Source: Bdellovibrionales bacterium (GTDB lineage Bacteria > Bdellovibrionota > Bdellovibrionia > Bdellovibrionales > JAUICD01). From it: a stretch of 64,000 nt of DNA. The translations under genes and the position numbers were made by a program. Positions 1,253 to 55,225 of this stretch are shown one piece after another. The DNA lies in contig CBDANC010000013.1 in assembly GCA_965197425.1 (NCBI GenBank), positions 243,070-307,069 of the forward strand, given 5' to 3'. Every line of letters starts with the position of its first letter. Position 1 is the first letter of the stretch. The notes beneath the pieces were generated by a model, which saw only the letters and a list, made by a program, of their open reading frames with translations, searched no databases and was not told the origin of the DNA.

Positions 1253-2052
1253 AAAAGGAAAACTTACACTACATAAAACAGACTAAAACACGATCTGACA
1301 CAAACCATGGACAGGTTGCCAATATTAAGGTTTTTATTTTACCCAATCTGCTGACCACAGGAAACTTGTTCTTTGGTTTTTACAGCATAGTATCCTCTAT
1401 AAACGGTAACTTTAAGGTTGCATGTTCCTCCATAATAATAGCCACTGTTTTTGATCTGTTAGACGGTAGAGTTGCTAAACTTACTAAAAGTGATTCAATA
1501 TTTGGAGCTCAATATGATGCGCTCTGTGATCTGGTTAGTTTTGGTGTAGCACCTTCTTTGTTAATGTACTTTTGGGCCTTACAGCCTTTTGGCAAATTTG
1601 GTTGGGTGGCCAGTTTTTTATATGTTTCTTGTACTGCTTTGAGACTTGCAAGATTTAACAGTAGTTACACCACTAGTGGTGGATACTCCACTCGTATAGG
1701 TCAATTTGGGGCAAGTAACAAAATTTCAAGACATTTTCAGGGACTGCCGTCTACCGCAGCTGCCGGTGTAATTGCTAGCAGTGTATTGTTCCTTTTGAAG
1801 AATAATATAGAAAACTATCGTCAAATAAGTTTGTTACTACTAACATTTACGCTAGCATTTCTTATGGTATCCAATTTTAAGTATAGAAACTTTAAGGACA
1901 TATTTATAAAAAAACGACACTTTTATATGTTAGTAATAGCGGTATTGTGTTTTATTTTACTTGTCATGCACACCGAGCTTACGCTCTTCATATTTTTTAC
2001 ATCATACATGTTGTTTGGTTGGCTGTTTAGCTCTAAGAGTTTGGAAGGTTAG
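1249..2052 (+). CDS. pssA: CDP-diacylglycerol--serine O-phosphatidyltransferase
   Basis: LPNLLT, CDP-alcohol phosphotransferase motif DLLDGRVAK...FGAQYDALCDLVSFG, LRLARFN, FQGLPS; start set to the ATG overlapping the upstream stop. Confidence 0.9.
   Translation: MKKENLHYIKQTKTRSDTNHGQVANIKVFILPNLLTTGNLFFGFYSIVSSINGNFKVACSSIIIATVFDLLDGRVAKLTKSDSIFGAQYDALCDLVSFGVAPSLLMYFWALQPFGKFGWVASFLYVSCTALRLARFNSSYTTSGGYSTRIGQFGASNKISRHFQGLPSTAAAGVIASSVLFLLKNNIENYRQISLLLLTFTLAFLMVSNFKYRNFKDIFIKKRHFYMLVIAVLCFILLVMHTELTLFIFFTSYMLFGWLFSSKSLEG
1679..1696 (+). repeat. 18-bp hairpin micro-element inside pssA (read as GGYSTR)
   Basis: GTGGATACTCCACTCGTA; stem GTGGA/TCCAC covaries with GCGGA/TCCGC of other copies; lies in an unusually long ARFN...FQGLP loop. 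Confidence 0.75.
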
Positions 2053-2056
2053 TTTT

Positions 2057-3893: not shown

Positions 3894-3997
3894 TCGCTAC
3901 AAACCCAAGTCATTACTTAAAATCTTTTTAGGTCTGATTTCTAGTCGAATAATCATCTCAATACGTAACACACACCAAAGCAACTGAAACACAGCAA

Positions 3998-4028
3998 TTT
4001 TCGATATGAGCCCACGGTATATCGAAAA
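3998..4028. terminator. Inverted repeat between convergent genes (possible bidirectional terminator)
   Basis: TTTTCGATAT-N11-ATATCGAAAA, perfect 10-bp arms. Confidence 0.35.
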
Positions 4029-4100
4029 AAACTTTAATTTTTGATATGTCACCTAAAAGCAAAAATAAAAACTAAGTTTAACAACTAGGTTTAGTTTTTC

Positions 4101-4769: not shown

Positions 4770-4863
4770 AACACCATCCTTGAGCTTAGTAACTTCTTTA
4801 GAACGTAACACAAATGGGGGGGGGTACAAGTACTTTGTTAAAAGGGAATAGCAAGATCAGTTA

Positions 4864-5016
4864 CTATTTTGTAATTATTCTATCAACACTTCTGAGTGTT
4901 TTAACAGTTTCGACATAATCGCCAAGATATAAATACACACCAAAATATGCATACGCTAATGCTGTAACTCCATGTCTATCTTCAACATTAATATCTATTT
5001 CTGTTTCCTCTACCAA
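4864..5016 (-). pseudogene. C-terminal remnant of an ankyrin-repeat gene
   Basis: Manual translation LVEETEIDINVEDRHGVTALAYAY...K*; in-frame stop a few codons upstream. Confidence 0.55.
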
Positions 5017-5046
5017 TGGGAAATTTTACATTTTAGTTTTTACATT

Positions 5047-16417: not shown

Positions 16418-16711
16418 ATGAAAAAATTAAGAACATACCAATTAGCAATGGATTTCTATAAAAATTCCAGAAATCTCTACCTGAAGGAACCATTGAAAAA
16501 TCAATTCCAAAGAGCAGCCTTAAGTGTTGTACTCAATTTAGCAGAAGGGAGTGCAAAGCCAACAGCTAAAGATAGAAGAAAATATTATAGAACCAGCCTC
16601 GGTTCACTTAGAGAAATGCAAGCAATATTAAATATTATAAGCCATAGGAATCTAACAGAAGAAGCGGATAAACTTGGAGGATATCTATACAAATTGTGTA
16701 AGAATACATAG
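16418..16711 (+). CDS. Four-helix-bundle protein (23S rRNA IVP / bAvd-like family)
   Basis: L..YQLA, L.NQ.QRAALSVVLNLAEG, SLGSLRE motifs; SD AAGGAG. Confidence 0.85.
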   Translation: MKKLRTYQLAMDFYKNSRNLYLKEPLKNQFQRAALSVVLNLAEGSAKPTAKDRRKYYRTSLGSLREMQAILNIISHRNLTEEADKLGGYLYKLCKNT

Positions 16712-27132: not shown

Positions 27133-27150
27133 TACGAGCGGAGTGTCCGC
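27133..27150 (-). repeat. 18-bp micro-element, intergenic copy beside the purB RBS
   Basis: Minus strand GCGGACACTCCGCTCGTA. Confidence 0.8.
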
Positions 27151-29762: not shown

Positions 29763-30860
29763 TCATACATTAAACTTGAAAAACAATATATCACCATCTC
29801 GCACCACATAATCTCTGCCCTCAGACCTATACAAGCCCTTTAGCTTAACCTCATTTTCTGACCCAAGCTTAAATAGATCATCGCAGTGATATTTTTCTGC
29901 CCTTATGAACCCTCTTTCAAAATCAGAGTGTATTTTGCCAGCAGCTTGAGATGCCACCGTGTCTTTCTGTATACTCCAAGAACGTACCTCCTTCTGTCCT
30001 GCAGTAAAAAAAGTAATTAAATCAAGCTGCCTATAAGAAGCCAGTATTAACCTATCTAGACCAGAACTAGAAAGACTCATCGATTCTAAATACAAACCTC
30101 TCTCACTTTCAGGTAGCCTAGCAATTTCCTCTTCAATCTTAGAGCATATGCTTAAAACCTCACTCTCATGCGAAAATTTTCGAAAAACCTCTTGCGAGAG
30201 TTTATCATTACCCCCTTCATCTACATTGCAGAGATAAATAACAGGCTTACCTGTGATCAAAAAAAGATCTTCAATATCCAAAATTCTCTTAAAACTTTTA
30301 GCAAAGCTACCATCACCTATGTGAGATAATAACTGCTCCGTAAGATCGATTTGCTTTTTTAAAGATGGATCACCTTTTGCTTTGACCTTTAGTTTTTTAA
30401 TCCTAGCTTCTACAGTATTTATATCCGCTAATAATAGTTCCGTATTAATAATCTCAATGTCTCTTAGCGGATTTACAGAGACTCCGCTTGTAACGGAAAC
30501 TCCACTTGTAACTGTCTCTGAAACATGAGTAATATTAGAATCTTCGAAGCACCTTACAACATGAATTATTATATCTGTTTCTCTGATGTGACTTAAAAAC
30601 TTATTGCCAAGCCCCTCTCCAACAGAGGCCCCCTTTACAAGTCCTGCTATATCTACAAACTCAATTGTGGAAGGTATAGTTTTCTCTGGCTTAAAAATCT
30701 CACTGATTTTATTAAGTCTCTTATCGGGAACAACCACCACACCTACATTTGGCTCTATTGTGCAGAATGGATAGTTGCTACTTTCGGCATTAGCATTTGT
30801 TAAAGCATTAAATAGTGTACTCTTCCCTACATTGGGAAGGCCCACGATTCCACATTTCAT
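29763..30860 (-). CDS. ychF: Redox-regulated ATPase YchF
   Basis: [52 protein letters not shown]. Confidence 0.97.
30475..30510 (+). repeat. Two tandem 18-bp micro-elements inside ychF (TSGVSV x2)
   Basis: ACAGAGACTCCGCTTGTA ACGGAAACTCCACTTGTA interrupt the HV...V-NP.RDIE motif. Confidence 0.85.
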
Positions 30861-39600: not shown

Positions 39601-42278
39601 AGAATGGAGTTTGCGTCCGAAAGCTTAGCATAATTTTCTATCGAAATCTCATAGTCATTCTCATCATAACCCCCGCTTGGCGGCATGACCCTAATGTAAG
39701 TATTACCACCAGAAGTTAAACCAAAGCTAAGGTTAGCAACCCCTATTGTATCCCCAACAAGATTACCTCCACCAACAGGTCCAATTTTCACCATATCCAA
39801 GAGACGATGAATGGAAAGTTCTTCCCATATAAACGTTCCTCCACCAGTAGTATTTCTTCCAAAATATGCAATTTCAGAATCAAATACTATGTCAATTACA
39901 ACATCGTCTGAACCATCAGAATCATCACTTGTTACACCATCACTGGTGTATTGAAAGGAAACCTCAGAAAGCTCGATGCATCTAAGACTATTACCACTAG
40001 CATCTTCAAGCTGGAACCAACCCTCTTCACCTCTGGTACAAGGGGTCTCTGGATTACCCACATAAAATACAGAATACTTCCTAGATACAGATAAATATCT
40101 AGTCCTATTCACGCTGTTGGCAATCAAATTGCCTTCTTCCAACCTAGCATAATTCTCTACTGAAACTTCATAGTTACCTTCCTCGTAACCTCCGCTTGGG
40201 GGCATGATCCTAATATAATGATTATCATCATCAGTTAAACCAAAGCTAAGGTTAGCAACCCCTATCGTATTTCCAACAAGATTACCTCCACCAAGTGGTC
40301 TTACCACAAGCATATCTAATAGACGATGTATCGAAAGATCTTCTAAAACAAAATCATTACTACCACCACTAACTCCTCCAAGATACAAGACTTCAGAATC
40401 AAACACTACGTCAATTACAACATCACTTGAACCATCTGAAGAACTTGATGTGGTACCATCATTTGTGTAGCTAAAAGAAACAACGGAGAGTGATATACAC
40501 CTGATCTTTCTGCCATCATCATCCACAAGCTGAAACCAACCCCGCTCACCCCTAGTACAAGGGGTCTCTGGATCGCCCACATAAAATACAGAATGCTTCT
40601 TGATTAGAGATAAATATCTAGTCCTACTGCTATTACTACTGTTAGTAATAAGCCTTTCATCTGACAACTTAGCATAATTTTCTACCGAAACTTCATAGTT
40701 ACCTTCATCATAACCCTCGCCTGGCGGCATGATCCTAATATAATGGTTACCACCAGAAGTTAAACCAAAGCTAAGGTCATCAACTCCTATTATATCCCCA
40801 ACAAGATTACTTCCACCAAGTGGTCTTACCACAAGCATATCTAATAGACGATGTATCGAAAGATCTTCTAAAACAAAACCACTTCCAGATCTTCCAAAAT
40901 ATGCAATTTCAGAATCAAACACCATGTCAATTACAACATCGTTTGAACCATCAGAATAATCGCTTGCTTCACCATCATTTATGTACTTAAAGGAAACTCT
41001 AGGGAGTTTTATGCAACTAAGTTTATTTCCACTTTCACCTTTAAGTTGAAACCAACCCCGCTCTCCATTAGTACACGGTGTTATAGGTTCTCCTGCAAAA
41101 AATACAGTTTCCTCTTGTACTTCACTTAAATACTTATCCTTATTACTACTCGCAAAAATTAAAGGTACATCTTCTGCTTTTGCGTAATTTTTCGAAGTGA
41201 TCTTATAACTACCTGCTGGATAAACACCATTCAGTAATTGAGGAGGTTTGACAGTTATATGTGACTTGCCGCCCTCATAATCAACTTCAAAATCATCGAC
41301 CAAAATTAACTGACCTACAAGATTTCGATTATCTTCATTAGTTATCTCTATCATATTATAGAGATCAATGCTTTTAGATAGTGCAGAACCTCTTCCATCT
41401 TCATCGAGATAAGATACGTGAGCATCAAAGTTAATATGGATATAAACGTCTTCCTTCGGCTCATTTGATGTGCCAGAAATAGATGTGCCACTGCTATCTT
41501 TAAAATCGAACTCTACTTCAGGAAGTTTAATACAGTTGTATTCATCTTTGCCCCCACTACTTTCCTTTTCTAGTAGAAAATAGCCACTTAAACCCGAATT
41601 ACAAACTTGTTCATGACCTGATAAGTCATCACAGGCAGATAGACCAAGAGAAGCAAGTATCAACATTGCTCCACTAAGCACGGGTTTTATTTTGTCACCT
41701 AAAACACGAGAAACAGGCCTTGCAAATTTTAACCCTCTGACAGGAGTTAGTAAAAATAAAGACTGTGCAACTGAAAACTTAGTCCCCTCTCTATTACCTG
41801 GGTTATTTACAGCATAAGTATCATCTCGATTGTTTAAATCTAGATTGCCAAAAGCAGATTCACCAAAAGATTTATATTTCTGTTCTTCAACTTTTTTAAT
41901 CCCCAGCCTATTACAGTAGAGATTATTTAACGATTCATCCGAAGAACATAACGAAGACACAAATTTAAGGATGGAATCTTCGCACTGTTTAGTGTCTATT
42001 AACAGATTACCATCTTCATTTGTTTGTTGTAACTTATCAAAAATTTCTTGTGAAGAAAGCTTGTCACCATCAATTGAATAGGCAACTTCTGATAGAATAT
42101 CACATCTTGCTACCGCATTTGCTATGAGGTCCAGGTCATGCTCACTTGGCTGGGTGTAACTTTCTAAATTACCTGAAGCTGGATTCAACACCGGCGGAGT
42201 GTCCGTGCTTTGAGCATGTACATAACCTGTGAGTATAAAAACTAATAAAAAAGCTACGTAGCTTAAAAGCCCTTTCAA
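36681..42278 (-). CDS. Giant repeat surface protein, paralog 1 (1865 aa)
   Basis: Signal peptide, internal LSAC lipobox (Cys216), ~160-180-aa beta-rich repeats joined by TPC..GE.G.F.L...CI.L loops. Confidence 0.85.
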   Translation of the reverse strand: MKGLLSYVAFLLVFILTGYVHAQSTDTPPVLNPASGNLESYTQPSEHDLDLIANAVARCDILSEVAYSIDGDKLSSQEIFDKLQQTNEDGNLLIDTKQCEDSILKFVSSLCSSDESLNNLYCNRLGIKKVEEQKYKSFGESAFGNLDLNNRDDTYAVNNPGNREGTKFSVAQSLFLLTPVRGLKFARPVSRVLGDKIKPVLSGAMLILASLGLSACDDLSGHEQVCNSGLSGYFLLEKESSGGKDEYNCIKLPEVEFDFKDSSGTSISGTSNEPKEDVYIHINFDAHVSYLDEDGRGSALSKSIDLYNMIEITNEDNRNLVGQLILVDDFEVDYEGGKSHITVKPPQLLNGVYPAGSYKITSKNYAKAEDVPLIFASSNKDKYLSEVQEETVFFAGEPITPCTNGERGWFQLKGESGNKLSCIKLPRVSFKYINDGEASDYSDGSNDVVIDMVFDSEIAYFGRSGSGFVLEDLSIHRLLDMLVVRPLGGSNLVGDIIGVDDLSFGLTSGGNHYIRIMPPGEGYDEGNYEVSVENYAKLSDERLITNSSNSSRTRYLSLIKKHSVFYVGDPETPCTRGERGWFQLVDDDGRKIRCISLSVVSFSYTNDGTTSSSSDGSSDVVIDVVFDSEVLYLGGVSGGSNDFVLEDLSIHRLLDMLVVRPLGGGNLVGNTIGVANLSFGLTDDDNHYIRIMPPSGGYEEGNYEVSVENYARLEEGNLIANSVNRTRYLSVSRKYSVFYVGNPETPCTRGEEGWFQLEDASGNSLRCIELSEVSFQYTSDGVTSDDSDGSDDVVIDIVFDSEIAYFGRNTTGGGTFIWEELSIHRLLDMVKIGPVGGGNLVGDTIGVANLSFGLTSGGNTYIRVMPPSGGYDENDYEISIENYAKLSDANSILNSEGTGDSSRTRYLSLIKKHSVFYVENPETPCTRGESGYFQLRKDGQDAECIKLSAVDVSYDSFNGADDVVITVGFDSRVAHIEGDGDFEGLSNNHLLEMLEISRVNGGGNLIGDSIGLEQLSVEVVSGSHRIKIEPPVGGYLDGDYAVSIEGYVRDSDAQAVSVSDNRDDYLQKATRTSAFYVGTRNTPCARGEAGYFQLRRDGQDAGCIELSVVDVSYSSSNGADDVVITVDFDSTVSYLDDNGDFEQVSNNHLLDMLEISGVNGGSNLIGDSIGLEQLSVEVVSGNHRIKIEPPVGGYLDGDYSVEIEGYVRDLDVQAVSVSDNRGDYLQRATKTSAFYVGTRNTPCARGESGYFQLKRDGQDAECIELSVVDVSYSSSNGADDVVITVDFDSKVSHIDDDGDFEILSNNHLLDMLEISSVNGGSNLIGDSIGLEQLSVEVVSGNHRIKIEPPVGGYLDGDYSVEIEGYVRDSDAQAVSVSDNRSDYLQRATRTSAFYVGTRNTPCARGELGYFQLRKDGQNAECIKLPTPTFEFTTSDGQNISREAGRAFVVPRDAVLTIRFNGEIAYIVEQGWETLSLQRVFDMVDIRQIDECDSDSAQDYTDCTTGRNKMGTEYTIDKITVGVDANGSYIIIEPPDNGLSATSEIEYECIARDEDGNPLLDENGNPILETCTKTITGDHVVELENYVFKSDAPDAYRADNLVDGYLPTVATHIIFHLEEDACDAGSSGVFTVIDDVGDKVGCIGIPTAAISFKDDSDDSIISRSGSNIEYIVPKDHTIEILFDGIVGYVDPEETISSGNYFNKRISESEVAKVVELVEVDCDTNDDGTNDVTNYEECEPIDDNADGVGDNLLGNPIADGNGEITVEIYVDRDLADGLYKSQIRIQDQDHYVCSNAIYRIKLRNYFYSKDYSHLEDIVSIVSSEGNSIGNMEGEYGYLGEIDDQQNYYRTHIYEDTNTGQCVESSGS
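38013..39500 (-). repeat. Three near-identical 477-bp intragenic units
   Basis: Anchor TATACA recurs at 38013, 38490, 38967 and 39444. Confidence 0.9.
42189..42206 (-). repeat. 18-bp micro-element inside paralog 1 (TDTPPV)
   Basis: ACGGACACTCCGCCGGTG between AGC and TTG; absent at the same site in paralog 2. Confidence 0.9.
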
Positions 42279-42312
42279 AAATCCCCCAAAAAATAAGATA
42301 CCCCAGTGGAGA

Positions 42313-42340
42313 CATTCGGATAGTTCGTTCCACTACTTTA
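42313..42340 (-). promoter_or_regulatory. Putative sigma-28 (FliA)-like promoter
   Basis: TAAA-N16-TCCGAATG; TCCGAAT conserved in the paralog leader; spacer 1 nt longer than canonical. Confidence 0.35.
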
Positions 42341-42556
42341 ATTTATAGCCATAGATGTTAGTTTTATTTTTTGATTTTCTGTACGCTCAGACGTCTTTAT
42401 TTAAACTTAGCCTCATAAATTCTTGAATAAAGCCATAACAACAGTTAACTCATATCAAGGTTAACTTAACTGCTCATGAACCTATGTTAAACTTTGAATT
42501 AAGAGTGATAAACACCCAAGATAAAAGGATTAAAAGGGCATATAGGGACAAAAGGT

Positions 42557-45500
42557 TTAAGGCGTTGTTCGGTAGTACTCGATATGATTATCCAAAGATT
42601 CTAGATAACCATCGTTACCCGTTATATTATCAACTTCTTCTATCACACCGGATAGATGATCGTAGTCCTCTGCGTAGTAAAAATCTTTAAGTATGATCTT
42701 ATAGTACTCACCACTGCTAAACGATGATCCTGTTCTCTGCTCTAGCGTTATGCGTGATCTATATGGTCTTCTAGATCTATCTTCGTCTTGGTCATCATCA
42801 TAATAAGTTGCTAATACGTTGTTAGCTGTAGTTTCTGTACAGTCTTCATCAGGGATATTAGTTGTACAAGTTAACTTTCTAATATCGACAATATCGGATA
42901 TATCCCTATTAGTAAGTTCCTCAGCAGGTGCAGATGAGTCTATTTTAGCTATAAGACCATCAAATATAATTTCTATTGTATGGTCAAGAGTTACAGTATA
43001 AATACCATTTCTCTTTGCAATACTGACATCATCACTGTCCATGAAAGAGATCTCTGCAGTTGGAATGCCAATACATCCAACCCTAATTCCAGTGCTATCT
43101 CTGAGCGTAAAATATCCATCTACCTCAGCATCACATTCATCCATATCCAAATGGAAAATCTCATGTGTTATTGTATAAGGCAAGAACCCGTCATCTCCTG
43201 TAAGATTATCAGCTTGAATTGCCCATGGAGCGTCTACTGTGTAAACATAGTTCTCTAGCTCAATTCTGTAGTCAAAAGCAGGTACAGTTGTTGTAACAAT
43301 GGTACAGTTTTCTTCACCATTTACAGTAGTACATATCTCTTCTTCTACTTCAGCAACAGCGTTGTACCCGTCATCCGGAGCATATATTCTAATAAAAGAT
43401 TGTTTTCCTGTTTTGCCAACAAGTATTTTATCCGAAGTTATGCTTGTTCCTATTTCATTAACATCAGAATAAGTACAATCAGTATAATCATCACTGTCAG
43501 TGTCACAATTGAACAAAGCCCTGATATCTACCATATCAAAAACTCTGTTTGCATCTAAAGTCTGCCACCCTCTCTCACCAATGTAGGAAACTTCTCCATC
43601 AAATGTAATTGTTAAAATTGCATCGCTAGGTATTTTAAACACACTGCCAGGAGTTTTTGAAATAGGATTCCCACTTTGTGTTGTATAGCTAAAGGTGGCT
43701 ATCGGACGCTCGATACACTTAAGATTGTTGTCATCTTTTTCAAGTTGAAACCAGCCTGCCTCACCTCTAGTACAAGGTGTTTCACCTGCACCCACATAGA
43801 ATGCAGACGTCCTACTTGTCTGAGTTAAATACTCTGCTCTATTATCACTTGAAGAAACCAAGGAAGCGTCCGAAGTCTTGGCATAGTTTTTAACCATAAC
43901 TTCATAAATACCCTCTACATACTTCTCAAATGGTGGGTTTATTGTAATACGACTACCTTTACTAACACTAATCTGCTCCAGACCTATGGTATCTCCAATA
44001 AGATTATCATCACCAGCTCTTAGCTTCACCTCTACCATATCTAACACATGGTGTTCTTTGAGTTCTTCCCAATTAGCCTGCTGATCAATATAAGCAACCT
44101 TTGTGTTGAAATCTACTGTAATAACAACATCATCAGAACCAGTAGACGAACTATAAGAAACATCAACCACAGGAAGCTTTATACACCTGGTTCTTGAACC
44201 ACCTAACTCAAGCTCAAAGTAACCGATCTCATGCCTATCACATGGTGTTTCTGGATCACCCACATTAAAAACAAAGTATTTTGTGGTTTGGTCTAAATAT
44301 CTATCTATACCACCAGCACCATCGCTACCCTGAACTGTATAAATTAAATTAGCATCATCAACCTTAGCATAATTTCTTATAGAAACCTCGTAGTCACCAT
44401 CATCATAACCACCAGCTGGAGGCATCACTCTAATGTAGCTATCACCAGAAGATGTTGTACCAAAACTAAGATTAGCACTATTTATTTCATCACCAATAAG
44501 CTCAGTACTATCTTGCTTTATCGATACCATTTGCAGCAGACGATGCGAAGAAAGCTCTTCCCAAGTATAGAATTCTCCACCAGGACTACCCGGCCCTATA
44601 TACGCAACCTCAGAACCATCAGCATCAAACGCTATATCAATAACAATATCCCTAGCTCCAACAGGATTTTGACCATTTTGATTAGTATTCCTAAATGAAA
44701 CTTCAGGAAGTTTGATACATCTCACTCTGTTTCCTTCTCCATCAACAAGTTGGAAGTAACCTGGCTGACCCAAAGTACAAGGGTTAGTTTGAGTACCAAC
44801 ATAGAAATAAGTTGCTACTGATACACCATTAACATAATCAGCTGTATTCTCACTTTTGAAAATAAATCCTGCATCAGCAACTCTAGTATAATTTTTCAAT
44901 GTAATCTTGTAACTATCCTCGGAATAACCACCTATAGGAGGACCTATAATTATAGAATGTTGTCCGTTGCTGAAATTCACTCTCAACTGCTCTAAACCTA
45001 TAGATTTACCAACCAGATTTGCACCACCATCAACAGGAGTAATTTCAAGCATTCCAAGTAATCTACCAGCTACCATCTCCTGCCAACCAGTTTCATCTAT
45101 ATAAGCTATCTCAGAATCAAACAAAATAGTTATAACATTATTAATACCACCAAAATCACTATGAGTAAAAATGGGTTCAGGAACCTTGATACACTTACCA
45201 AGAGACTCATCTTCGTTATACAATTGGAAATAACCTAATCTACCAGTAGTACAGTTATTACTTATCTCCCCTACAAGAAATACCGAGTATTTTTTAGCTA
45301 AAACTAAGTACCTAGCTATACCAGATTCACCAACACCTTCACTATTAACAATTAAATTTGCATCACCTTCTTTTGCGTAGTCTTCTATCGAAATTTCATA
45401 GTCACCCTCAGCCCAACCATTTTCAGGAGGCATAATCCTAATATAAGTATTACCACCAGAAGTTAAACTAAAACTAAGATTAGCAATGCCTATTTCACCA

Positions 45501-46996
45501 TCACCTACAAGCTCTCTACCATCTCGTTTTACTGATACCATTTGCAATAGACGGTGCAAAGAAAGTTCTTCCCAAGAAAAGAAATTAGCATTATCTCGTC
45601 CCAAGTATACAATTTTAGAGTCAAACACTATATCGATCACAACATCATTAGAACCATCTGGTTGAGCCAAAGTGACACCACCACTTGTGTAATTGAAAGC
45701 AACTTGAGGCAGTACTATACACTTAAGTTTACTACCGTTACTGTACTCAAGCTGAAAGTAACCAGGCAAACCCTCGGTACAAGGAGTACTAGGCTGGCCT
45801 GAATAAAAGACAGCTTGCTCTTGAGCCACCTGAAGGTATTCATTTATATTATTACTACCTGAGATTAGACTTAAATCTTTTCGTCTTACATAGTTTTTTA
45901 CTGTTATTGTGTGACTACCTTCTGGATAAAAACCATCTAGCAAAGCTGGTGGCTTGATGGTGATATATGATTTACCATCCCTGACACCAACTTCAAAATC
46001 ATCCAACAGAACAAAGTCTCCCACCAAATTTACTGTGTCTTCATAATTTACCTCTACCATATCATACAGATCCAAGCTTTTAGATAACTTAGAACCTCGT
46101 CCATTTTCGTCAATGTAAGACACAATGGAGTCAAACTGAATATTGATATGCATATCTTCTTTAGATTCTTGTGAAGATCCTGAAATAGGATTACCATCCG
46201 AATCGGTGAAAGTAACTTCTACATCTGGTAATCTTATACACCCACTTTGTGGACCCTCACCGTTTCCTGCATCAGATGTTTTTTCTATTAAAAAATAGTT
46301 GCTAAGACCAGTGCTACACGCTTGTTCAGGACCCGTTAAATCATCACAAGAGGACAAGCCTAGGGAAGCCAAAATTAACATCGCCCCACTTAAAACTGGT
46401 TTTATTTTGCTGCCCAAAATTTTTGATGCAGGCCTTGCAAGTTTTAACCCTCTTACCGGAGTTAGTAAAAATAAAGACTGCGCTACTGAAAACCTAACTT
46501 CTTTTGTATCGTCTTTTACATTGTTACTTGCAAAACGACTATTATCCCAATCGTACAAATCTAGATTACCAAAAGCAGATTCACCAAAAGTTTTATAATT
46601 GTCTTCTGATTTATCTGCATCATCAATTTTTTTAATGCCAAGCCTATTACAGTAAGTATTGTTTACTAACTCACCTGAAGAACACAAAGATGATACAAAT
46701 TCTAAAATAGCATCGCCACATTCCCTGCTGTCTATTAACAGATCACCATCTTCATTTGTTTGTTGTAACTTATCAAAAATTTCTTGTGAGGAAAGTTCGT
46801 TGCCATCAATTGAGTGGACAACTTCTGATAAAATATCACATCTTGCTACTGCGTTTTCTATGAGGTTTAGATCATGTTCACTTGGCTGGGTATAACTCTC
46901 TAGACTGCCTGAAGTCAGATCCAAGCTCTGGGCATTTACATAGCCAGCAAACACAAAAGCTAATAAAAAAGCTACATAGCTTAAAAGCCCTTTCAA
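42557..46996 (-). CDS. Giant repeat surface protein, paralog 2 (1479 aa)
   Basis: N-terminus nearly colinear with paralog 1; internal LSSC lipobox (Cys217); same repeats. Confidence 0.85.
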   Translation of the reverse strand: MKGLLSYVAFLLAFVFAGYVNAQSLDLTSGSLESYTQPSEHDLNLIENAVARCDILSEVVHSIDGNELSSQEIFDKLQQTNEDGDLLIDSRECGDAILEFVSSLCSSGELVNNTYCNRLGIKKIDDADKSEDNYKTFGESAFGNLDLYDWDNSRFASNNVKDDTKEVRFSVAQSLFLLTPVRGLKLARPASKILGSKIKPVLSGAMLILASLGLSSCDDLTGPEQACSTGLSNYFLIEKTSDAGNGEGPQSGCIRLPDVEVTFTDSDGNPISGSSQESKEDMHINIQFDSIVSYIDENGRGSKLSKSLDLYDMVEVNYEDTVNLVGDFVLLDDFEVGVRDGKSYITIKPPALLDGFYPEGSHTITVKNYVRRKDLSLISGSNNINEYLQVAQEQAVFYSGQPSTPCTEGLPGYFQLEYSNGSKLKCIVLPQVAFNYTSGGVTLAQPDGSNDVVIDIVFDSKIVYLGRDNANFFSWEELSLHRLLQMVSVKRDGRELVGDGEIGIANLSFSLTSGGNTYIRIMPPENGWAEGDYEISIEDYAKEGDANLIVNSEGVGESGIARYLVLAKKYSVFLVGEISNNCTTGRLGYFQLYNEDESLGKCIKVPEPIFTHSDFGGINNVITILFDSEIAYIDETGWQEMVAGRLLGMLEITPVDGGANLVGKSIGLEQLRVNFSNGQHSIIIGPPIGGYSEDSYKITLKNYTRVADAGFIFKSENTADYVNGVSVATYFYVGTQTNPCTLGQPGYFQLVDGEGNRVRCIKLPEVSFRNTNQNGQNPVGARDIVIDIAFDADGSEVAYIGPGSPGGEFYTWEELSSHRLLQMVSIKQDSTELIGDEINSANLSFGTTSSGDSYIRVMPPAGGYDDGDYEVSIRNYAKVDDANLIYTVQGSDGAGGIDRYLDQTTKYFVFNVGDPETPCDRHEIGYFELELGGSRTRCIKLPVVDVSYSSSTGSDDVVITVDFNTKVAYIDQQANWEELKEHHVLDMVEVKLRAGDDNLIGDTIGLEQISVSKGSRITINPPFEKYVEGIYEVMVKNYAKTSDASLVSSSDNRAEYLTQTSRTSAFYVGAGETPCTRGEAGWFQLEKDDNNLKCIERPIATFSYTTQSGNPISKTPGSVFKIPSDAILTITFDGEVSYIGERGWQTLDANRVFDMVDIRALFNCDTDSDDYTDCTYSDVNEIGTSITSDKILVGKTGKQSFIRIYAPDDGYNAVAEVEEEICTTVNGEENCTIVTTTVPAFDYRIELENYVYTVDAPWAIQADNLTGDDGFLPYTITHEIFHLDMDECDAEVDGYFTLRDSTGIRVGCIGIPTAEISFMDSDDVSIAKRNGIYTVTLDHTIEIIFDGLIAKIDSSAPAEELTNRDISDIVDIRKLTCTTNIPDEDCTETTANNVLATYYDDDQDEDRSRRPYRSRITLEQRTGSSFSSGEYYKIILKDFYYAEDYDHLSGVIEEVDNITGNDGYLESLDNHIEYYRTTP

Positions 46997-47447: not shown

Positions 47448-47939
47448 TTAACTTAGAAGTTTATCCCATATACCATCTTTTTTTCCAGAAGTGATGTCTA
47501 TTGACTTAGAACTACCCTCAGACTTAGCAATAACAATAGTTAAAACTCCATCCTCGTGATGAGCTTTCACTGCACCTTCTTTTATTCCAGAAGGAAGACT
47601 TACCTGTCTTTCAAATACCAACGGAGTATCCGTTACCAGCGGAGTATCCGTAAAACAATAGCTTTTTTCACTATAGGTTTTATCGGAGTGTTTAGGTTTT
47701 CTCTCTCCTCTTATTTTTAATGTAGATCCATGCACCTCAACTTTTAAATCTTTTTTTGCCACACCAGGCAAATCAAAGCTATATAGATAATGCGTGTCTT
47801 TTTCTACTACGTCACATGGAGGCATCATGCCAGTAGGGTGATCAAATAAATTGAACATACCTCCAAAATCGTCCCTCATATCCGATAGCAGAGAAAAAGG
47901 TCTAAGCGATCTATGAGAATTATTAATTAAACTTTTCAT
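47448..47939 (-). CDS. Hsp20/alpha-crystallin small heat-shock protein
   Basis: DLPGV.K.D.KV, L.IRGER, A.HEDGVLTI; SD GGGAGG. Confidence 0.9.
   Translation of the reverse strand: MKSLINNSHRSLRPFSLLSDMRDDFGGMFNLFDHPTGMMPPCDVVEKDTHYLYSFDLPGVAKKDLKVEVHGSTLKIRGERKPKHSDKTYSEKSYCFTDTPLVTDTPLVFERQVSLPSGIKEGAVKAHHEDGVLTIVIAKSEGSSKSIDITSGKKDGIWDKLLS
47616..47651 (-). repeat. Two tandem 18-bp micro-elements inside hsp20 (TDTPLV x2)
   Basis: ACGGATACTCCGCTGGTA ACGGATACTCCGTTGGTA. Confidence 0.9.
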
Positions 47940-48107: not shown

Positions 48108-49496
48108 TTATTTTTTTAGCGGAAACTCCGCCCGTGTACGCCCATAGTCATCTTCATATCTAACTATGTCATCTTCACCAAAGTATTCACCTAATTGAAC
48201 CTCTACAAACTCTAAGACGCTGCCTTTTACATTCTCAATCCTGTGTTTTGCCAAAGCAGGTATGAATATATGATCACCAACATTTAGTGTAATATCTTTT
48301 CCATCCAAAGTAACTTTCCCTGTACCTTTTACAACAGTCCAATGTTCCGATCTTTTTTTGTGTGACTGATAAGAGAGTCTACAACCAGGATTTACCTTAA
48401 TAATTTTGATAGCAAAAAAAGGAGTACTTCTTACTTTTTCAAATTCTCCCCAAGGTCTTTTAACAGTGTCAGTATATGCATACTTAGTATTAGATATTTT
48501 TTTATATACTTGTTTAAGTTTATGCATTTTATCTTTATCTGAAACCAATAAGGCATCAGGACTATCCATTATGGTTAAATTATTGGTACCTAGAAATACA
48601 GATAACTTATCTGTATTAACAGAAAAAAAGCTATTATTAGATGCCTCATGTTCTATTAGTGGGTTTGCGGATACTCCGCTGGTGTAATTAGAGGACCACT
48701 GATTTATATTTCCAACATCCCTCCATCCAAGGTCACACACAATTACTTTTGTATCTTTTGCTTTTTCAGCTATTGCTATATCAAAACTCTGTGCAGATAA
48801 TTTTTTATAAACTTCATCTAAACTAGATAAATCAGCCTCCCTTAGTATCTCATGGGTTTTGGGCTCAAAAGTTTTAAAAAGCTCTATTAGATTTTTAACC
48901 TTAATTATAAAAATCCCTGAGTTCCAAAGGTAATTGGATTTTATGTACTTCTGTGCCATCTCCTTCGAAGGTTTTTCTACAAATTCTATTACATCAGCAA
49001 TATTGGAACCTTCATGTTTGATATATCCATGCTCACAACTAGCATGAGTGGGCGTTATGCCAAATGTAATGAGGTTATTGTTTTTTGCAGTTTGAATACC
49101 AAGCTTTATGTTGTCATCAAATATTTTTTGGTTTTCTATCAAGTGATCTGAAGGAAATATACCTATCACACTATCCTTAAAGCCTTGTTTTTCTAAAATC
49201 AATGCTGCTAATAACGCTGAATGAGCAGTGCCTTTTGGCTCTGGCTCTAATATAATATTTTTTGAGGCTACTAGCGGAGTATCCGTTTGAAGGTTTTCTA
49301 ATGAATCAATGGTTAAATTTTCAAGATGATGACTGGTAACAACAAGTATTTTTCCAAAGTCTTTTAGTCTATCAACGGTTTGTTCAAATAGGTTTGGCTC
49401 AAAGATAGGTGAAAATTGCTTTGGTTTATCAATGCGTGATATAGGCCAGAGTCTTGTACCAGCACCACCTGATAATATAACTGAAAAAAACTCCAT
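48108..49496 (-). CDS. manC: Mannose-1-phosphate guanylyltransferase / mannose-6-phosphate isomerase
   Basis: VILSGGAGTRLWPISR..PKQF, FPSDH, FVEKP, WNSGIF, RPWG, SYQSHKKRSEHW, EDDIVR. Confidence 0.93.
   Translation of the reverse strand: MEFFSVILSGGAGTRLWPISRIDKPKQFSPIFEPNLFEQTVDRLKDFGKILVVTSHHLENLTIDSLENLQTDTPLVASKNIILEPEPKGTAHSALLAALILEKQGFKDSVIGIFPSDHLIENQKIFDDNIKLGIQTAKNNNLITFGITPTHASCEHGYIKHEGSNIADVIEFVEKPSKEMAQKYIKSNYLWNSGIFIIKVKNLIELFKTFEPKTHEILREADLSSLDEVYKKLSAQSFDIAIAEKAKDTKVIVCDLGWRDVGNINQWSSNYTSGVSANPLIEHEASNNSFFSVNTDKLSVFLGTNNLTIMDSPDALLVSDKDKMHKLKQVYKKISNTKYAYTDTVKRPWGEFEKVRSTPFFAIKIIKVNPGCRLSYQSHKKRSEHWTVVKGTGKVTLDGKDITLNVGDHIFIPALAKHRIENVKGSVLEFVEVQLGEYFGEDDIVRYEDDYGRTRAEFPLKK
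48119..48136 (+). repeat. 18-bp micro-element at the manC C-terminus (RAEFPL)
   Basis: GCGGAAACTCCGCCCGTG just after the conserved DDYGR end. Confidence 0.8.
48667..48684 (+). repeat. 18-bp micro-element inside manC (TSGVSA)
   Basis: GCGGATACTCCGCTGGTG. Confidence 0.9.
49269..49286 (-). repeat. 18-bp micro-element inside manC (TDTPLV)
   Basis: ACGGATACTCCGCTAGTA. Confidence 0.9.
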
Positions 49497-49502
49497 CAAA
49501 AA

Positions 49503-50863: not shown

Positions 50864-53800
50864 TCAATCCAGACTATCCTGCACAACAGTTGATCCTCTG
50901 ACACTATCAACTGTATTTACAGTGTTATAGTTAGACGCATCCTCTATTGTGTATTGAAGTGCATCAGATGAGTTTGCCACAGGATCACCTAGCCGGATTT
51001 GCACATCAGGATTTGAACTATTATAATAACAATACCCTATGTTTTCCAAAACATCATCTGCACATATATCAGATTTCCATCTAACTTCATCTGCACTAAA
51101 CAGGGATATTTCTTGATCAGAATTACTATATGACATTATCGTTCCGTATCCCAGGTCACTTAGACGCCCCCCATAACCATAACCATTGCCGTTAAAGTTA
51201 TCAGGATCAGGATAACTTCCACCACCTAAAGGGTCCCTTTCTAGTGTATCTTCATCATGCATAAGACTAAGGTTATGCCCGATCTCATGAGCTAAGGTTA
51301 AATAAGCGAACTCTCTAGCAGAATTATTGCTAATGGGCTCAGGTGGTACAGTGCTTCCCACCGACCTCCACCTTGTAGCCAGTTCAGATACATTTCCCCT
51401 TATTCTTGTAGATGCAACTCCTCCATAATCATTATTTTTTACTATCGCATGAACAAGATCAGCACCTGTTTGCCTTTGAATTCTGGGTACCAGCTCTCTC
51501 AACACATACAACTCCCCGACACCATCAGTTTGTCCTTTCAAAGACAAATAGTCCAGTGAACTTACATCACATAACAGATATGGTCTATACTCAGAAAAAG
51601 GTCTGACTGCCACTGCTCTAAACTCTACATTCACACCTGAATTTTGATACATATCGTTTACTGCTGGAATATAATTATTCTGAATCTCGCTTCTCCAAAA
51701 ACTTAAATCTCCAAGTCCTAAATAGTATTCAGAAATAATGAATGCAATATCGATTTGATAAGTTTTATTAGAATCTGCTCTATCTCTAAGTGAACTCAGG
51801 GCTTTATCTGCATCCTCACCTGACAGAAAATTATCAAATTCAATGTGAGGAAAATCAATCAAATCAGTGCCACAAACAAAGCCAGGCTGCGACTCTCCAT
51901 CATTAACCTGTGCTTGGTTAACACTTCCTGAAATAGATATTACATCACAGGATGTTGACAACGACAGCATATCAATAGGAGTAGTTTTAGTTATATCAGC
52001 TAGATATTCTGATACATTGTTACTGCTGTAAATTTTAGATGCATCGGTCTTCTTAGCAAATTTACCTATCGATACAATTAAATCAAAATAATAACTATCT
52101 TCACTTTGTGATAAAGCATCATAAGAGTTTCCTCTCTCATAAACAGGTGGCTTTATACTTATGATAGTTTTTCTATCAACAACACTATATGACACTTGGC
52201 TCTCCCCTATATCACCAAACTCATTCACTATATCTTCCTCACCAAACTGCATATCAACCATATCTAAAATTCTTTGCTTTGTTAGATTGCCCTGTTCACT
52301 ATCTGTTAAGTAAACAATTTCACTATCAAACTTTATATTAATAGTTGTGGCAGGATCAAAATTATGTTGAACAAGCTCTTTTCCCCCACTAGGAGTGTAG
52401 GTGTAAGACACCTCAGGAAGCTTTATACACTCAGTTGTACCATTGGAATTTTGAAGCTCAAAATAACCAGCCTCTCCTCTAGTACAAGGCGTTTCAGCTT
52501 TTACCACTAAAAAAGAAAGCTGCTGTCTAACCAAATTTAAATACACCAACTTATTACTACTTGCTACAACCTTACTAGCATCAACACTCTTAGCAAAATC
52601 ACCAAATGACAATGTATAAGAACCAGGTGCATAAACTAACCCATCAGGAGGACTTATTGTAATAACTGTACTACTAGTTGAACTTGCAAATGATACTTGA
52701 TCTGTATCAATAGAACCAAATAAAGTAGCAAGATCAACTCCACTACTATCCCTTACTTCCAACATCTCCAAAATATTTTGCTTACTTAAATTACTAGATG
52801 TATTACCACTTCCTAAGTACATTATCTGAGAATCAACCTTTATCTTTATAACTGTAGTCGGATCACCATTGTGGCTTGAAGACTCACTCCCACCACTTGG
52901 AGTAAAAGTAAAGGTTACTTCTGGAAGCTTTATACACTCAGTTGTACCATTGGAATTCGTTAACTCAAAATAACCAACCTCTCCTCTGGTACAAGGCGTT
53001 TCAGGCTTTACTACTAAAAAAGCAAACTGCTGTCTAACCAAATTTAAATACACCAACTTATTACTACTTGCTACAACCTTACTAGCATCAATACTCTTAG
53101 CAAAACCACCAAATGAAACAATATAAGAACCAGGTGCATAAACTAGCCCATCGGGGGGGCTTATTGTAATAACTGTACTACCAGTTGAACTTGCAAATGA
53201 TACTTGATCTGTACCAATAGAACCAAATGAAGTAGCAAGATCAACTCCACTACTATCCCTTACTTCCAACATCTCCAAAATATTTTGCTTACTTAAATTA
53301 CTAGATGTATTACCACTTCCTAAGTACATTATCTGAGAATCAACCTTTATCTTTATAACTGTAGTCGGATCACCATTGTGGCTTGAAGACTCACTCCCAC
53401 CACTTGGAGTAAAAGTAAAGGTTACTTCTGGAAGCTTTATACACTCAGTTGTACCATTGGAATTCGTTAACTCAAAATAACCAACCTCTCCCCTAGTACA
53501 AGGCGTTTCAGGCTTTACTACTAAAAAAGAAATCTGTGTTCTAACTGTATCTAAATAACTAGATTTATTATTACTTACTACAACCTTACTAACATCAACA
53601 CTCTTAGCAAAATCACCAAATGAAACAGCATAAGAACCAGGTACATAAACTAGACCGTTAGGAGGACTTATTGTAATAACTGTACTACCAATTGAACTTG
53701 CAAATGATATTTGATCTGTATCAATAGAACCATCTACAGTTGCAAGATCAACTCCATTACTATCCTTTACTTCCAACATCTCCAAAATATTTTGCTTACT

Positions 53801-55225
53801 TAAATTGCTAGATGTATTACCACTTCCTAAATACATTATCTGAGAATCAACCTTTATCTTTATAACTGTAGTCGGATCACTATCGTGGCTTGAAGACTCA
53901 CTCCCACCACTTGGAGTAAAAGTGAAATCAACCCGAGGCAACTCTATACATTCAGTTGTACCGTTGGAATTCGTTAACTCAAAATAACCAGCCTCCCCTC
54001 TAGTACAAGGCGTTTCAATTTTATTCACAATAAAATCAAAACTAACATTTGCATTATTAAAATAATCTGACTTATTAGAACTATCTAATATCTTTCCAGC
54101 ATCACTTCTTACAGCATAGTTTTTAACCACCACACTGTAACTACCGTTAGAAAGATTCTCCAAAGGACTAAATGTAAAATAAGAGCCATCCATAACTAAA
54201 CTATAAGCAAGACTGTCATCCAAAATACTAGCATCACCACCACTATCAGTAGTTCTTCTTATATCAAATATATTAGAAAGAACACCGTCAGATAAACTCC
54301 GCCAACTATCGTAGGAAAGATAACCTACATCACTCCTATCAAACCCGACCCTAACAGAATTTAAGGGATTTTCATCATGCGAGCTAGATTCATTCCCCAG
54401 CAGATCAACATAACTAACAGTTACTTTAGGAATGTCTATACACTGAGCACCTCTAAAACTTTTTAATTTGAATTTATCATCTCCACACTCTATTTGTGGC
54501 TCTGTTAAGTCATCGCATGAAGATAAACCCAAAGCAGCTAACACCAATAGCGCCCCATTTAATACAGGTTTTATAGTAGGAGAAATAGCATGCCTAACCC
54601 TGCTTGCCAATTTTAGCTTCTTAACAGGGCTTAATAAAAATAAAACCCCTGCAACGGAAAATCTACTGGTGTCCTGCGTAGCATTAAGTTCTGAATATCT
54701 ATTTAAACTTCTACCAACACCCAAAGCATCTATGGCAGATGAACCAAATTGTTTATAATCATCTCTATTACTAGCGGGGTACCCGTGAATCCCCAACTTT
54801 GCACAAAACGCCCTGTTCTGATCAGAACTGGAAGCACAAACTGAAGATACAAACCCCAGAATAGACTCTCTACAATCTAAACTATCAATCAACAACCGAC
54901 CATCAGAGTTGGTTTGTTGAAGCTCAGAAAAAAGCCTAGCAGCAGCTACATCCTCCTTACCACCACTATTTTGGATAAGATCATTTAAAATCTCACACTG
55001 ACTGACTGCTACATTCGCCAAATCGAGTTCTCTTTCACTTAAGCTCATATAGCTTGGCGAATACTCCACTGGTAGCGAATACTCCGCCGGTAGCGAATAC
55101 TCCGCCGGTAGCGAATACTCCACTGGTGATTGAGCATAGGAAACACTCGAAACTAAGAAAAAATGAAAGACTAATATTCTGAACAATGGCATATCAAAAA
55201 AACTGGGGCGCTTTAAAAACATCAA
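50864..55225 (-). CDS. Giant repeat surface protein, paralog 3, with C-terminal reprolysin-like zinc metalloprotease
   Basis: Same N-domain and internal LSSC lipobox (Cys237); 169-aa repeats; HEIGHNLSLMH and GTIMSY Met-turn. Confidence 0.85.
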   Translation of the reverse strand: MMFLKRPSFFDMPLFRILVFHFFLVSSVSYAQSPVEYSLPAEYSLPAEYSLPVEYSPSYMSLSERELDLANVAVSQCEILNDLIQNSGGKEDVAAARLFSELQQTNSDGRLLIDSLDCRESILGFVSSVCASSSDQNRAFCAKLGIHGYPASNRDDYKQFGSSAIDALGVGRSLNRYSELNATQDTSRFSVAGVLFLLSPVKKLKLASRVRHAISPTIKPVLNGALLVLAALGLSSCDDLTEPQIECGDDKFKLKSFRGAQCIDIPKVTVSYVDLLGNESSSHDENPLNSVRVGFDRSDVGYLSYDSWRSLSDGVLSNIFDIRRTTDSGGDASILDDSLAYSLVMDGSYFTFSPLENLSNGSYSVVVKNYAVRSDAGKILDSSNKSDYFNNANVSFDFIVNKIETPCTRGEAGYFELTNSNGTTECIELPRVDFTFTPSGGSESSSHDSDPTTVIKIKVDSQIMYLGSGNTSSNLSKQNILEMLEVKDSNGVDLATVDGSIDTDQISFASSIGSTVITISPPNGLVYVPGSYAVSFGDFAKSVDVSKVVVSNNKSSYLDTVRTQISFLVVKPETPCTRGEVGYFELTNSNGTTECIKLPEVTFTFTPSGGSESSSHNGDPTTVIKIKVDSQIMYLGSGNTSSNLSKQNILEMLEVRDSSGVDLATSFGSIGTDQVSFASSTGSTVITISPPDGLVYAPGSYIVSFGGFAKSIDASKVVASSNKLVYLNLVRQQFAFLVVKPETPCTRGEVGYFELTNSNGTTECIKLPEVTFTFTPSGGSESSSHNGDPTTVIKIKVDSQIMYLGSGNTSSNLSKQNILEMLEVRDSSGVDLATLFGSIDTDQVSFASSTSSTVITISPPDGLVYAPGSYTLSFGDFAKSVDASKVVASSNKLVYLNLVRQQLSFLVVKAETPCTRGEAGYFELQNSNGTTECIKLPEVSYTYTPSGGKELVQHNFDPATTINIKFDSEIVYLTDSEQGNLTKQRILDMVDMQFGEEDIVNEFGDIGESQVSYSVVDRKTIISIKPPVYERGNSYDALSQSEDSYYFDLIVSIGKFAKKTDASKIYSSNNVSEYLADITKTTPIDMLSLSTSCDVISISGSVNQAQVNDGESQPGFVCGTDLIDFPHIEFDNFLSGEDADKALSSLRDRADSNKTYQIDIAFIISEYYLGLGDLSFWRSEIQNNYIPAVNDMYQNSGVNVEFRAVAVRPFSEYRPYLLCDVSSLDYLSLKGQTDGVGELYVLRELVPRIQRQTGADLVHAIVKNNDYGGVASTRIRGNVSELATRWRSVGSTVPPEPISNNSAREFAYLTLAHEIGHNLSLMHDEDTLERDPLGGGSYPDPDNFNGNGYGYGGRLSDLGYGTIMSYSNSDQEISLFSADEVRWKSDICADDVLENIGYCYYNSSNPDVQIRLGDPVANSSDALQYTIEDASNYNTVNTVDSVRGSTVVQDSLD
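52421..54020 (-). repeat. Three near-identical 507-bp intragenic units
   Basis: Anchor recurs at 52421, 52928, 53435 and 53942. Confidence 0.9.
55057..55128 (+). repeat. Four tandem 18-bp micro-elements inside paralog 3 (P[A/V]EYSL x4)
   Basis: GCGAATACTCC(A/G)C(T/C)GGT(A/G) x4 right after the AQS signal cleavage site. Confidence 0.9.

Follow-up and report, generated by a model that had tools for sequence, protein, structure and literature searches.

Is an 18-nt hairpin that recurs within protein-coding genes a mobile element and, if so, what moves it? The question was raised by an earlier note on the window, i.e. the stretch of 64,000 nucleotides analysed here, from an uncultured bacterium of the Bdellovibrionales. 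All 14 copies listed there were recovered at the coordinates and on the strands given, 13 of them in ORFs; the exception, at 27133, is found upstream of purB. The inventory required two amendments: the supposedly single pssA copy is a doublet, and a copy in giant protein 3 had been overlooked (Table 1). The latter shows no gap against the congener protein, the host identity being only 45%. At ≤2 mismatches the window contained 16 matches compared to 0.03 expected (100 shuffles). A match at 54654 had a broken stem and was not retained by the profile; therefore, it is probably due to chance. Pfam agreed with the host identities pssA-like, purB, ychF, hsp20 and manC. A reprolysin-like domain was assigned to giant protein 3, and giant protein 1 was without Pfam match. 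An Rfam scan of the window returned tRNA only.

Table 1. Copies of the 18-nt element in the window (positions are those of the whole stretch).
Host and copy	Position	Strand	Observation
pssA-like gene (1219-2052 +), doublet	1661..1696	+	first unit degenerate; 12-column gap in congener orthologue
directly upstream of purB, single copy, non-coding	27133..27150	-	
ychF (29763-30860 -), doublet, +12 aa	30475..30510	+	exact 12-aa gap in 75%-identical congener orthologue
giant protein 1 (36681-42278 -), single copy	42189..42206	-	neighbouring paralogue giant protein 2 contains the empty site, ungapped, 75% identity
hsp20 (47448-47939 -), doublet, +12 aa	47616..47651	-	exact 12-aa gap in congener
manC (48108-49499 -), single copy at 3' end of gene	48119..48136	+	absent from 93%-identical ManC P0001
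manC, single copy; doublet in related strains	48667..48684	+	6-aa gap in congener
manC, single copy (TDTPLV)	49269..49286	-	6-aa gap in congener
giant protein 3 (50864-55225 -), extra copy, compensated stem	54769..54786	-	
giant protein 3, array of four units	55057..55128	+	

The unit of 18 nt consists of a predicted 5-bp stem, an N-A-C loop and a 5-nt tail ending with GT[A/G], thus one 13-nt hairpin per unit. The ACGG/GCGG type of the window turned out to be a local subtype, and the commonest type across the whole genome is GTGGATACTCCAC-YNGTA. The host assembly (99%-complete, 15 contigs) was scanned with several queries. At ≤2 mismatches we obtained 106 matches in the genome compared to 1-2 in each of three Markov-5 controls, i.e. 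far above chance. With a profile score of at least 14, 120 matches were found in the genome, 2 in the congener and 1 in a control; an architecture scan yielded 99, 1 and 1 per scrambled control, respectively. The final set comprises 118 units in 77 clusters, 65 of which (84%) are located inside ORFs, with 43 distinct host ORFs. These counts, and the 71 sites used below, exclude five profile matches: four whose congener counterpart shows zero gap, plus a weak match in a poorly aligned host; the four zero-gap matches were retained among the 29 sites of the congener gap test. The element is lineage-restricted. An exact match was absent from 60 relatives, and the doublet pattern had 0 matches in genome, viral and metagenome collections, among which the host genome possibly is not represented. 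The single-unit pattern retrieved 22 singletons in 22 unrelated genomes, which we read as chance. A broader pattern matched 31 times in G000 and no more than once in any of 120 members of the order, the control being alike. The repeats found in the congener itself (a CRISPR array; intergenic repeats of ~125 bp) do not have the element architecture.

The stem is maintained by compensatory change. Of the 71 sites, 52 have T-A at pair 2:12 and 15 have C-G (covariation, Fisher p=1e-12), and pair 5:9 likewise swaps between sites. A short stem-loop kept in this manner is also found in the REP/REPIN class. A pairing of loop and tail (positions 6:18) was unsupported by the site comparison. Among mispairs 27 are readable as G-T on the reverse strand and 12 on the forward strand (p=0.024), counts which are not phylogenetically independent. 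On the reverse strand the foot of the hairpin reads TAC(N)R or CAC(N)R. A second 18-nt family of a different sequence has the same stem, loop, tail and length, and corresponds to gaps of 6, 12 and 12 aa in congener orthologues; loop AC and tail GT are invariant across both families. The host genome also contains separate REPIN-like inverted modules of ~85 bp with the same stem/TAC/NNGTA ends.

Empty sites demonstrated precise insertion. At 17 of the 29 sites that could be tested (hosts at least 50% identical) the congener orthologue was short by exactly 6n residues, a gap which occurs in 4.3% of random windows; this bears out the claim that insertion proceeds in 18-nt units. Paralogous empty alleles, ungapped and 74-98% identical, were available at 11 distinct sites and therefore fix the ends of the unit: it starts at the stem and ends with GT[A/G]. 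A summed register test on 13 sites peaked at offset 0. Neither a target duplication at the empty-site comparisons with orthologues and paralogues nor terminal inverted repeats spanning the whole unit were observed, i.e. the two features of a MITE. Movement of a miniature inverted-repeat element by a DDE transposase or a serine resolvase is very improbable, then, and largely refuted by the absent duplications. The genome does contain candidates, a single IS1634-like gene for a 548-aa DDE transposase on C11 which has no congener match, and one serine resolvase on C12. However, C11 is devoid of element copies, and the resolvase is 78% identical in the element-free congener and located 26 kb from the nearest copy.

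Differences between close strains amount to whole units. The hsp20 doublet was unchanged in the runs X1 and X3, and X4 was net 36 nt shorter. The 18 nt of the manC copy at 48119 were missing from contigs of X4, X5 and X6. At manC 48667 an additional, different unit was present in X6 and in P0001, that of X6 differing in 3-4 bases from the resident one. The copy at manC 49269 is common to P0001 and absent from P0002-P0004. In giant protein 3 the X6 contig skips 54 nt of the array, leaving one unit. The presence/absence polymorphism which had been suggested was thus encountered among X4-X6 contigs and P0001-P0004. An 18-nt insert in hsp20 of X4 was ruled out as a copy; it carries a 6-bp direct repeat.

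Could the repeats have arisen without mobility, by slippage, gene conversion between paralogues, a convergent peptide linker, or as an adapter or assembly artefact? Some sites are common to paralogues, slippage probably contributes to some arrays, and 24 of 77 clusters reside in ORFs >900 aa, which constitute 10% of the genome. Against this stand the 43 host ORFs, the use of five frames, exact empty sites, and independent runs and assemblies which carry or lack units; two adapter motifs had 0 matches. As the main cause these processes are already refuted and their residual probability is negligible. The observations which the earlier note had named as damaging were not made: orthologues are 6n residues shorter, the frequency is above chance, and a contig from another sample (X3) spans the hsp20 doublet with 0 differences. 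We conclude with high confidence that the 18-nt family is a mobile, precise-insertion element. The earlier proposal of a tiny mobile element is supported by insertion, lineage restriction and strain polymorphism; the postulated trans-acting factor was not found in the genome.

Five of the six reading frames are used, one more than the four reported previously. This showed that the conserved unit is the DNA sequence and not a peptide, as had been claimed. None of 61 sites uses the stop-prone frame, again as noted before. About 88% of modelled insertions create no stop. Because 18 is a multiple of three and most insertions are stop-free, the element persists within genes at a frequency matching the coding density of the genome. 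The predicted six-residue inserts are likely neutral passengers in indel-tolerant positions. With respect to the host gene 31 copies have the same and 30 the opposite orientation (n=61). These data bear on a route via RNA such as was reportedly once proposed for Nostoc SDRs: transcripts would release the hairpin, and reverse transcription or RNA-templated recombination would bring it back into the DNA. The stem is predicted to be stable as RNA (-4.1 to -6.8 kcal/mol, with G-T/U pairs tolerated) and most copies are intragenic. Yet orientations are about equal and a reverse transcriptase (RVT_1) had no match in the genome, making this route improbable.

Next to the insertion point a target preference emerged. 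A G is located four bases downstream in 54 of 71 sites (p=1e-26), followed by W at +5. The preferred target, N-N-N-G-W immediately 3' of the insertion point, is not a strict tetranucleotide; G and W match the element's own bases, and its own start conforms. On the reverse strand the target would resemble the element's end bases, and an existing copy would then be a preferred target. Of the 118 units, 41 are extra units of arrays, and the genome offers ~336,000 GW sites. Arrays run head-to-tail. Adjacent pairs are identical in only 2 of 41 cases; neighbouring units differ by 2.5 bases compared to 3.8 for random pairs. Some arrays look locally duplicated; in the array of four at 55057 one stem defect is common to all units. 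An age gradient was absent, first and last units having 12 and 10 defects, respectively (25 arrays). As both are equally decayed, one-sided growth is documented by three cases only. There was no replication-strand bias: 33 and 34 of 71 sites were on either side relative to the inferred leading strand, 4 being unclear and the skew noisy.

Which enzyme might move the element? The earlier note suggested looking for a RAYT/HUH or reverse transcriptase gene flanked by copies; none was found in the genome. Y1_Tnp (PF01797) had 0 matches in the 99%-complete assembly, and RAYT/tnpA-REP (NF047646) 0 in two genomes. As the assembly consists of 15 contigs, a missing RAYT gene could sit in a gap. Tyrosine recombinase, IS110, Cas1 and DUF559 had no match in the genome; the Y2_Tnp profile yielded 0 matches, with its control also silent. 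A single GIY-YIG match, a 612-aa frame which is present in the congener too, is by inference UvrC. Among the 276 ORFs lacking a congener match, the 217 with a length of 80-600 aa were scanned with Pfam and contained no Y1 or RAYT; the scan yielded only DDE/IS1595 pieces, HTH arrays, restriction, toxin-antitoxin and four-helix-bundle genes.

Our preferred reading is tentative and falls short of being probable: an HUH/Y1-type transposase, absent from the assembly, acts in trans. Because none of the searched mobiliser classes was found and a replication-strand bias is lacking, we can only infer such a mechanism. The element would move as single-stranded hairpin DNA, with the reverse strand being active as 5'-TAC(N)R-hairpin-3', its 5' foot unpaired as in REPs and IS200/IS605 ends. 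On this strand the target would be 5' of the insertion point and resemble the last bases of the element, a peel-and-paste geometry of the IS608 type, and arrays would be extended by a new copy added at one side. Counting further against an HUH enzyme are the single 13-nt hairpin, the absence of a GT[AG]G guide from single copies, and a conserved target base located four bases from the junction instead of adjacent to it.

Possibly a dedicated enzyme is dispensable, the unit being duplicated from a neighbouring one during host replication or repair. In that case a nascent end resembling the element's start would switch template to a copy or a tiny circle, copy one unit and return; such a switch and return would account for precise insertion without duplication. 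The absence of the searched mobiliser classes and of a strand bias agrees with this, as does the spatial clustering of copies (41 gaps <5 kb compared to a simulated mean of 16, maximum 29), with neighbours tending to a common subtype (p=0.003). Further, the 3' flank is identical to the element's first 8 bases at 3.3 of 8 positions compared to 2.0 at random. However, this resemblance is mostly one G plus W, insufficient for annealing. Compensatory stems and the invariant AC/GT in two families point to recognition by a protein, and no copies occur in the congener, although its housekeeping machinery is the same. We therefore regard participation of host machinery alone as rather unlikely.

How does the element compare to known systems? 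Nostocaceae harbor the small dispersed repeats SDR1-8 (Elhai et al. 2008, Genome Res 18:1484), reportedly of 21-27 nt, with compensatory stems and nesting in their own copies. SDR5 inserts between bases 3 and 4 of HIP1 and the SDR mobiliser is unassigned (PMC4390886, PMC5861425, PMC3116915). As far as these descriptions go, SDRs similarly are structured, dispersed elements below 30 nt inserting precisely at a set position of a preferred target. They differ in that our unit has 18 nt and a non-cyanobacterial host, and in that the SDR target is an over-represented palindrome and ours a loose N-N-N-G-W.

REPs are described as 20-40 bp long (21-65 nt in PMC6006769) and situated mainly between genes, with a GT[AG]G or CGTC tag, under-represented head-to-tail dimers and a tnpA-REP gene flanked by repeats (PMC3733652, PMC6006769). 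According to PMC3733652, intragenic GTAG/CGTC REPs share several features with our element. They are short stem-loops in which one end bears an unpaired tag, they occur singly, as dimers and in groups, their subfamilies have stems that are complementary in alternative ways, and they are inserted in frame into genes, DNA-repair and tRNA-related ones among them. In contrast to the REPs so described, the 18-nt element is predominantly intragenic and forms head-to-tail arrays instead of mostly extragenic inverted doublets. No RAYT, i.e. no cognate tnpA-REP gene flanked by repeats, was found, and single copies have neither a CGTC tag nor GT[AG]G at the hairpin 5' foot on either strand. The earlier link to GTAG-REPs is weak, as GTAG is formed at tandem junctions only.

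Rickettsia palindromic elements (RPEs), of 100-150 bp and encoding a conserved peptide (PMC3767692, PMC10969869), are likewise palindromes inserted in frame. They reside in housekeeping genes unrelated to one another, again in a bacterium with a small genome, and several families coexist. Unlike these, as there described, our unit has 18 nt, uses five frames without encoding one peptide, and is polymorphic between close strains. In IS200/IS605 elements (IS608, ISDra2), according to PMC6006769, TnpA binds hairpins of 20-25 nt at the two ends and IS608-type enzymes use the lagging-strand template. They resemble our element in the absence of target duplication and in unpaired bases at the hairpin 5' foot, here on the reverse strand; a one-sided target motif resembling the element's last bases may be a further parallel (PMC6006769). 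They differ, on that description, as the 18-nt element has a single hairpin of 13 nt in place of two subterminal ones, no transposase gene and no lagging-strand bias detected.

In-frame hairpin inserts are thus already published for Rickettsia RPEs, intragenic REPs and Nostoc SDRs, and the 18-nt family is smaller than the described ones we found. In the literature outside subscription journals we found no description of it. In the cited texts SDRs, CGTC REPs and RPEs are without an assigned enzyme. For studying how such sub-30-nt repeats travel, the family offers an unusually clean substrate with exact ends, a target rule and polymorphic strain sites, and its two sequence families isolate the structural requirements. 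A length divisible by three and the near absence of stops suffice for residence in genes at the genome's coding density, so that gcvP-, ychF-, manC- and tRNA-synthetase-like proteins have in effect been scanned by natural insertion of six residues. The element may, though we consider this doubtful, be a minimal self-targeting replicator, a 5-bp stem, AC loop and GT tail which either an unrecognised enzyme or the host machinery by itself passes from strain to strain, in a genome where HUH transposase, reverse transcriptase, IS110, Cas1 and tyrosine recombinase had no match. If true, no smaller bacterial mobile element is among those we found described, and it would represent a new precise, duplication-free insertion route which adds six-residue loops to essential proteins.

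At up to two mismatches the window contained 16 matches to the 18-nt hairpin element (the 18-mer), compared with 0.03 expected. All 14 copies listed in the earlier note were among them; the pssA-like copy, taken there to be single, is actually a doublet (1661-1696), and an additional copy is located at 54769. The assembly which holds the window comprises 1.60 Mb with 35% G+C and is rated 99% complete. As judged by the names of ManC homologues, the host is probably related to Bdellovibrio. The scan of the whole genome which had been proposed returned 106 matches at the same threshold, whereas three Markov controls had 1-2 each. A profile search gave 122 matches at scores of at least 13; after five were dropped and the first pssA unit was added, the final set consisted of 118 units. 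These form 77 clusters, i.e. single copies or head-to-tail arrays (52 singles, 13 doublets, 8 triplets and 4 quadruplets), and represent 71 non-redundant sites. ORFs of at least 100 amino acids span 87% of the genome and contain 65 of the 77 clusters (84%); thus, genes are neither avoided nor sought. The host ORFs number 43. Giant ORFs, which make up 10% of the genome, carry 24 of the 77 clusters. Copies are spatially clustered and neighbours have a subtype in common.

The 18-mer is a true insertion. For comparison, 1.60 Mb of a congener without the element were used (median protein identity 68%). A congener alignment covered 55 sites, 29 of them in hosts at least 50% identical. The inserts of 6n residues predicted by the earlier note were found exactly, as a gap of 6 residues per unit, at 17 of these 29 sites, and within one residue at 19; in random windows the frequency of such gaps was 4.3%. 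Four of the 29 had zero gap and were dropped from the census as false matches. In the window, exact gaps were present in ychF (12 residues), hsp20 (12) and at two manC sites (6 each). A DNA register test summed over 13 sites had its maximum at the defined ends. Paralogues inside the genome supplied ungapped empty alleles for 11 distinct sites at 74-98% identity; one of these 18-mers resides in another repeat family, the empty form of which is 98% identical. Target duplication was absent at the compared empty sites.

Related strains differed by whole units when presence and absence were mapped as the earlier note had advised; their contigs are mostly 90-99% alike to the window, at depths of only 2-6. 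The 48119 copy is missing in contigs of three runs from two other studies. The hsp20 doublet site is 36 nt shorter in a contig of run X4; in X6 one of the four units of the 55057 array is kept and the 48667 site has one extra unit. The pattern recurs in an independent, 93% identical ManC, in which the C-terminal insert is missing and the middle site holds a doublet. Where copies were covered, zero differences from the window occurred in X1, the probable source run, and in X3, another sample. The 18-mer is real and recently mobile.

Two further observations were made in these strains. Contigs of X5 and X6 skip 4715 nt between the tandem pair of giant-protein genes (window 36681-46996), which suggests copy-number variation or another paralogue arrangement. 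In X4, hsp20 carries a different in-frame 18-nt insert at 47879; a 6-bp direct repeat bounds it, and it is not a copy of the 18-mer.

A 5-bp stem is predicted for the 18-mer, with N-A-C as its three-base loop and Y-N-G-T-R as the tail. Of 71 sites, 52 have T-A and 15 have C-G at stem pair 2:12 (p=1e-12); pair 5:9 exchanges among A-T, T-A and G-C. Stem mispairs that would read as G-T wobbles number 27 on the reverse strand versus 12 on the forward (p=0.024), a modest hint that the reverse strand may be recognised. At 54 of 71 sites G occupies the fourth position 3' of the insertion point (18% expected; p=1e-26); singles show the preference too (32 of 46), and A or T comes after this G at 48 sites. 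An architecture scan independent of sequence, with 99 matches in the genome versus 1 in the congener, uncovered a second 18-nt family, CTGG(T/C)AAC(A/G)CCAG-NNGTA. Its gaps in congener orthologues were 6, 12 and 12 residues and less clear at two other sites. Both families start with N-N-G-G; therefore, the start of an existing copy satisfies the target rule. Extra array units account for 41 of 118, and only 2 of 41 adjacent pairs are identical, which suggests that arrays were built by repeated insertion. Local duplication is also suggested, by defects that units share within some arrays. Frame use at 61 coding sites (same strand 20, 11, 0; opposite strand 5, 9, 16) was non-uniform (p=1e-4) and departed from target preference alone (p=0.026); it was compatible with target preference plus a stop-codon filter (p=0.31). 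All three ManC inserts are at the C-terminus or where homologue length varies.

The ~85-bp modules have inverted hairpins at their two ends, with a TAC loop and an NNGTA tail as hairpin parts (REPIN-like). Possibly they are relatives or parents of the 18-mers.

Locations of the second family, the modules and other features (G000, genome carrying the window; G001, congener)
Feature	Location	Basis
Second 18-nt family, in frame in genes, congener sites empty	G000 C13:37137-37172, C13:97660-97713, C14:199327-199362, C12:17113-17130, others	Architecture scan
gcvP-like gene, several inserts of both 18-nt families	G000 C13:34289-37270	
~85-bp intergenic modules, often tandem	G000 C15:87300-87720, C12:155150-157300, C12:215100-215400, C14:348250-348440	Architecture scan and genome repeats
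Eighteen dispersed four-helix-bundle genes (PF05635, 23S rRNA IVP family), no congener match	G000, window 16418-16711 plus 17 further loci	
ORFs with signal-peptide-like start, then arrays of transposase-type HTH domains	G000 C15:188267-189319, 241255-246286, 344777-347488	
CRISPR-like array, 36-bp repeat	G001 L048:9200-9850	

How is the 18-mer moved? According to PMC6006769, HUH/Y1 processing of IS200/IS605 and REP elements is marked by a target on one side, the absence of duplication, similarity between target and element end, and a hairpin with unpaired bases at its 5' foot. Because the 18-mer would have these hallmarks, with G plus A or T in place of a strict tetranucleotide as target, an HUH/Y1 enzyme is proposed by analogy; we give it somewhat less than an even chance. 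Against it count the absence of a detected strand bias, the single 13-nt hairpin, the missing GT[AG]G guide and the outcome of the gene searches, which returned neither Y1 nor RAYT in the assembly. Spread by an RNA route is improbable. Searches for reverse transcriptase, tyrosine recombinase, IS110 and Cas1 were equally negative; PF00589 had zero matches whereas all 14 control genomes were positive, hence the genome is without XerC/D. The sole intact-looking mobiliser candidates, an IS1634-like transposase and a resolvase, are highly improbable: the contig of the former holds zero copies, and the latter is common to the congener, which has no element. The HUH/Y1 or other mobilising enzyme may have been lost, may be visiting on a plasmid or phage, may be unassembled or may belong to an unrecognised class. 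Template switching by the host machinery is a rival of lower probability than the HUH/Y1 enzyme, yet more probable than the RNA route. Contig C9 has an ORF with DDE_Tnp_1_7, probably piggyBac-like, and C10 is phage-like in appearance; both are possibly contamination or a prophage piece.

In the way it operates the 18-mer resembles the SDRs of Nostoc as well as intragenic REPs, and its effect is that of Rickettsia RPEs, but it does not pass the tests by which REP, RPE and MITE membership is defined (compared with PMC3733652 and PMC6006769 for REP, PMC3767692 and PMC10969869 for RPE, and PMC3116915, PMC4390886 and PMC5861425). A literature search of openly accessible article text returned no description of this or any 18-nt family.

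Other repeats were noticed. Seven-nt tandem repeats are abundant in the genome, and the congener has its own ~125-bp intergenic family at many loci, with a 14-mer core in 84 copies. The PF05635 genes look like a second lineage-specific invader.

Exact 18-mer matches were absent from 60 relatives, the congener included; 120 members of the order had at most one match per genome, and public collections had none beyond chance. The 18-mers constitute a very small, sharply defined family which is confined to the lineage of this genome.
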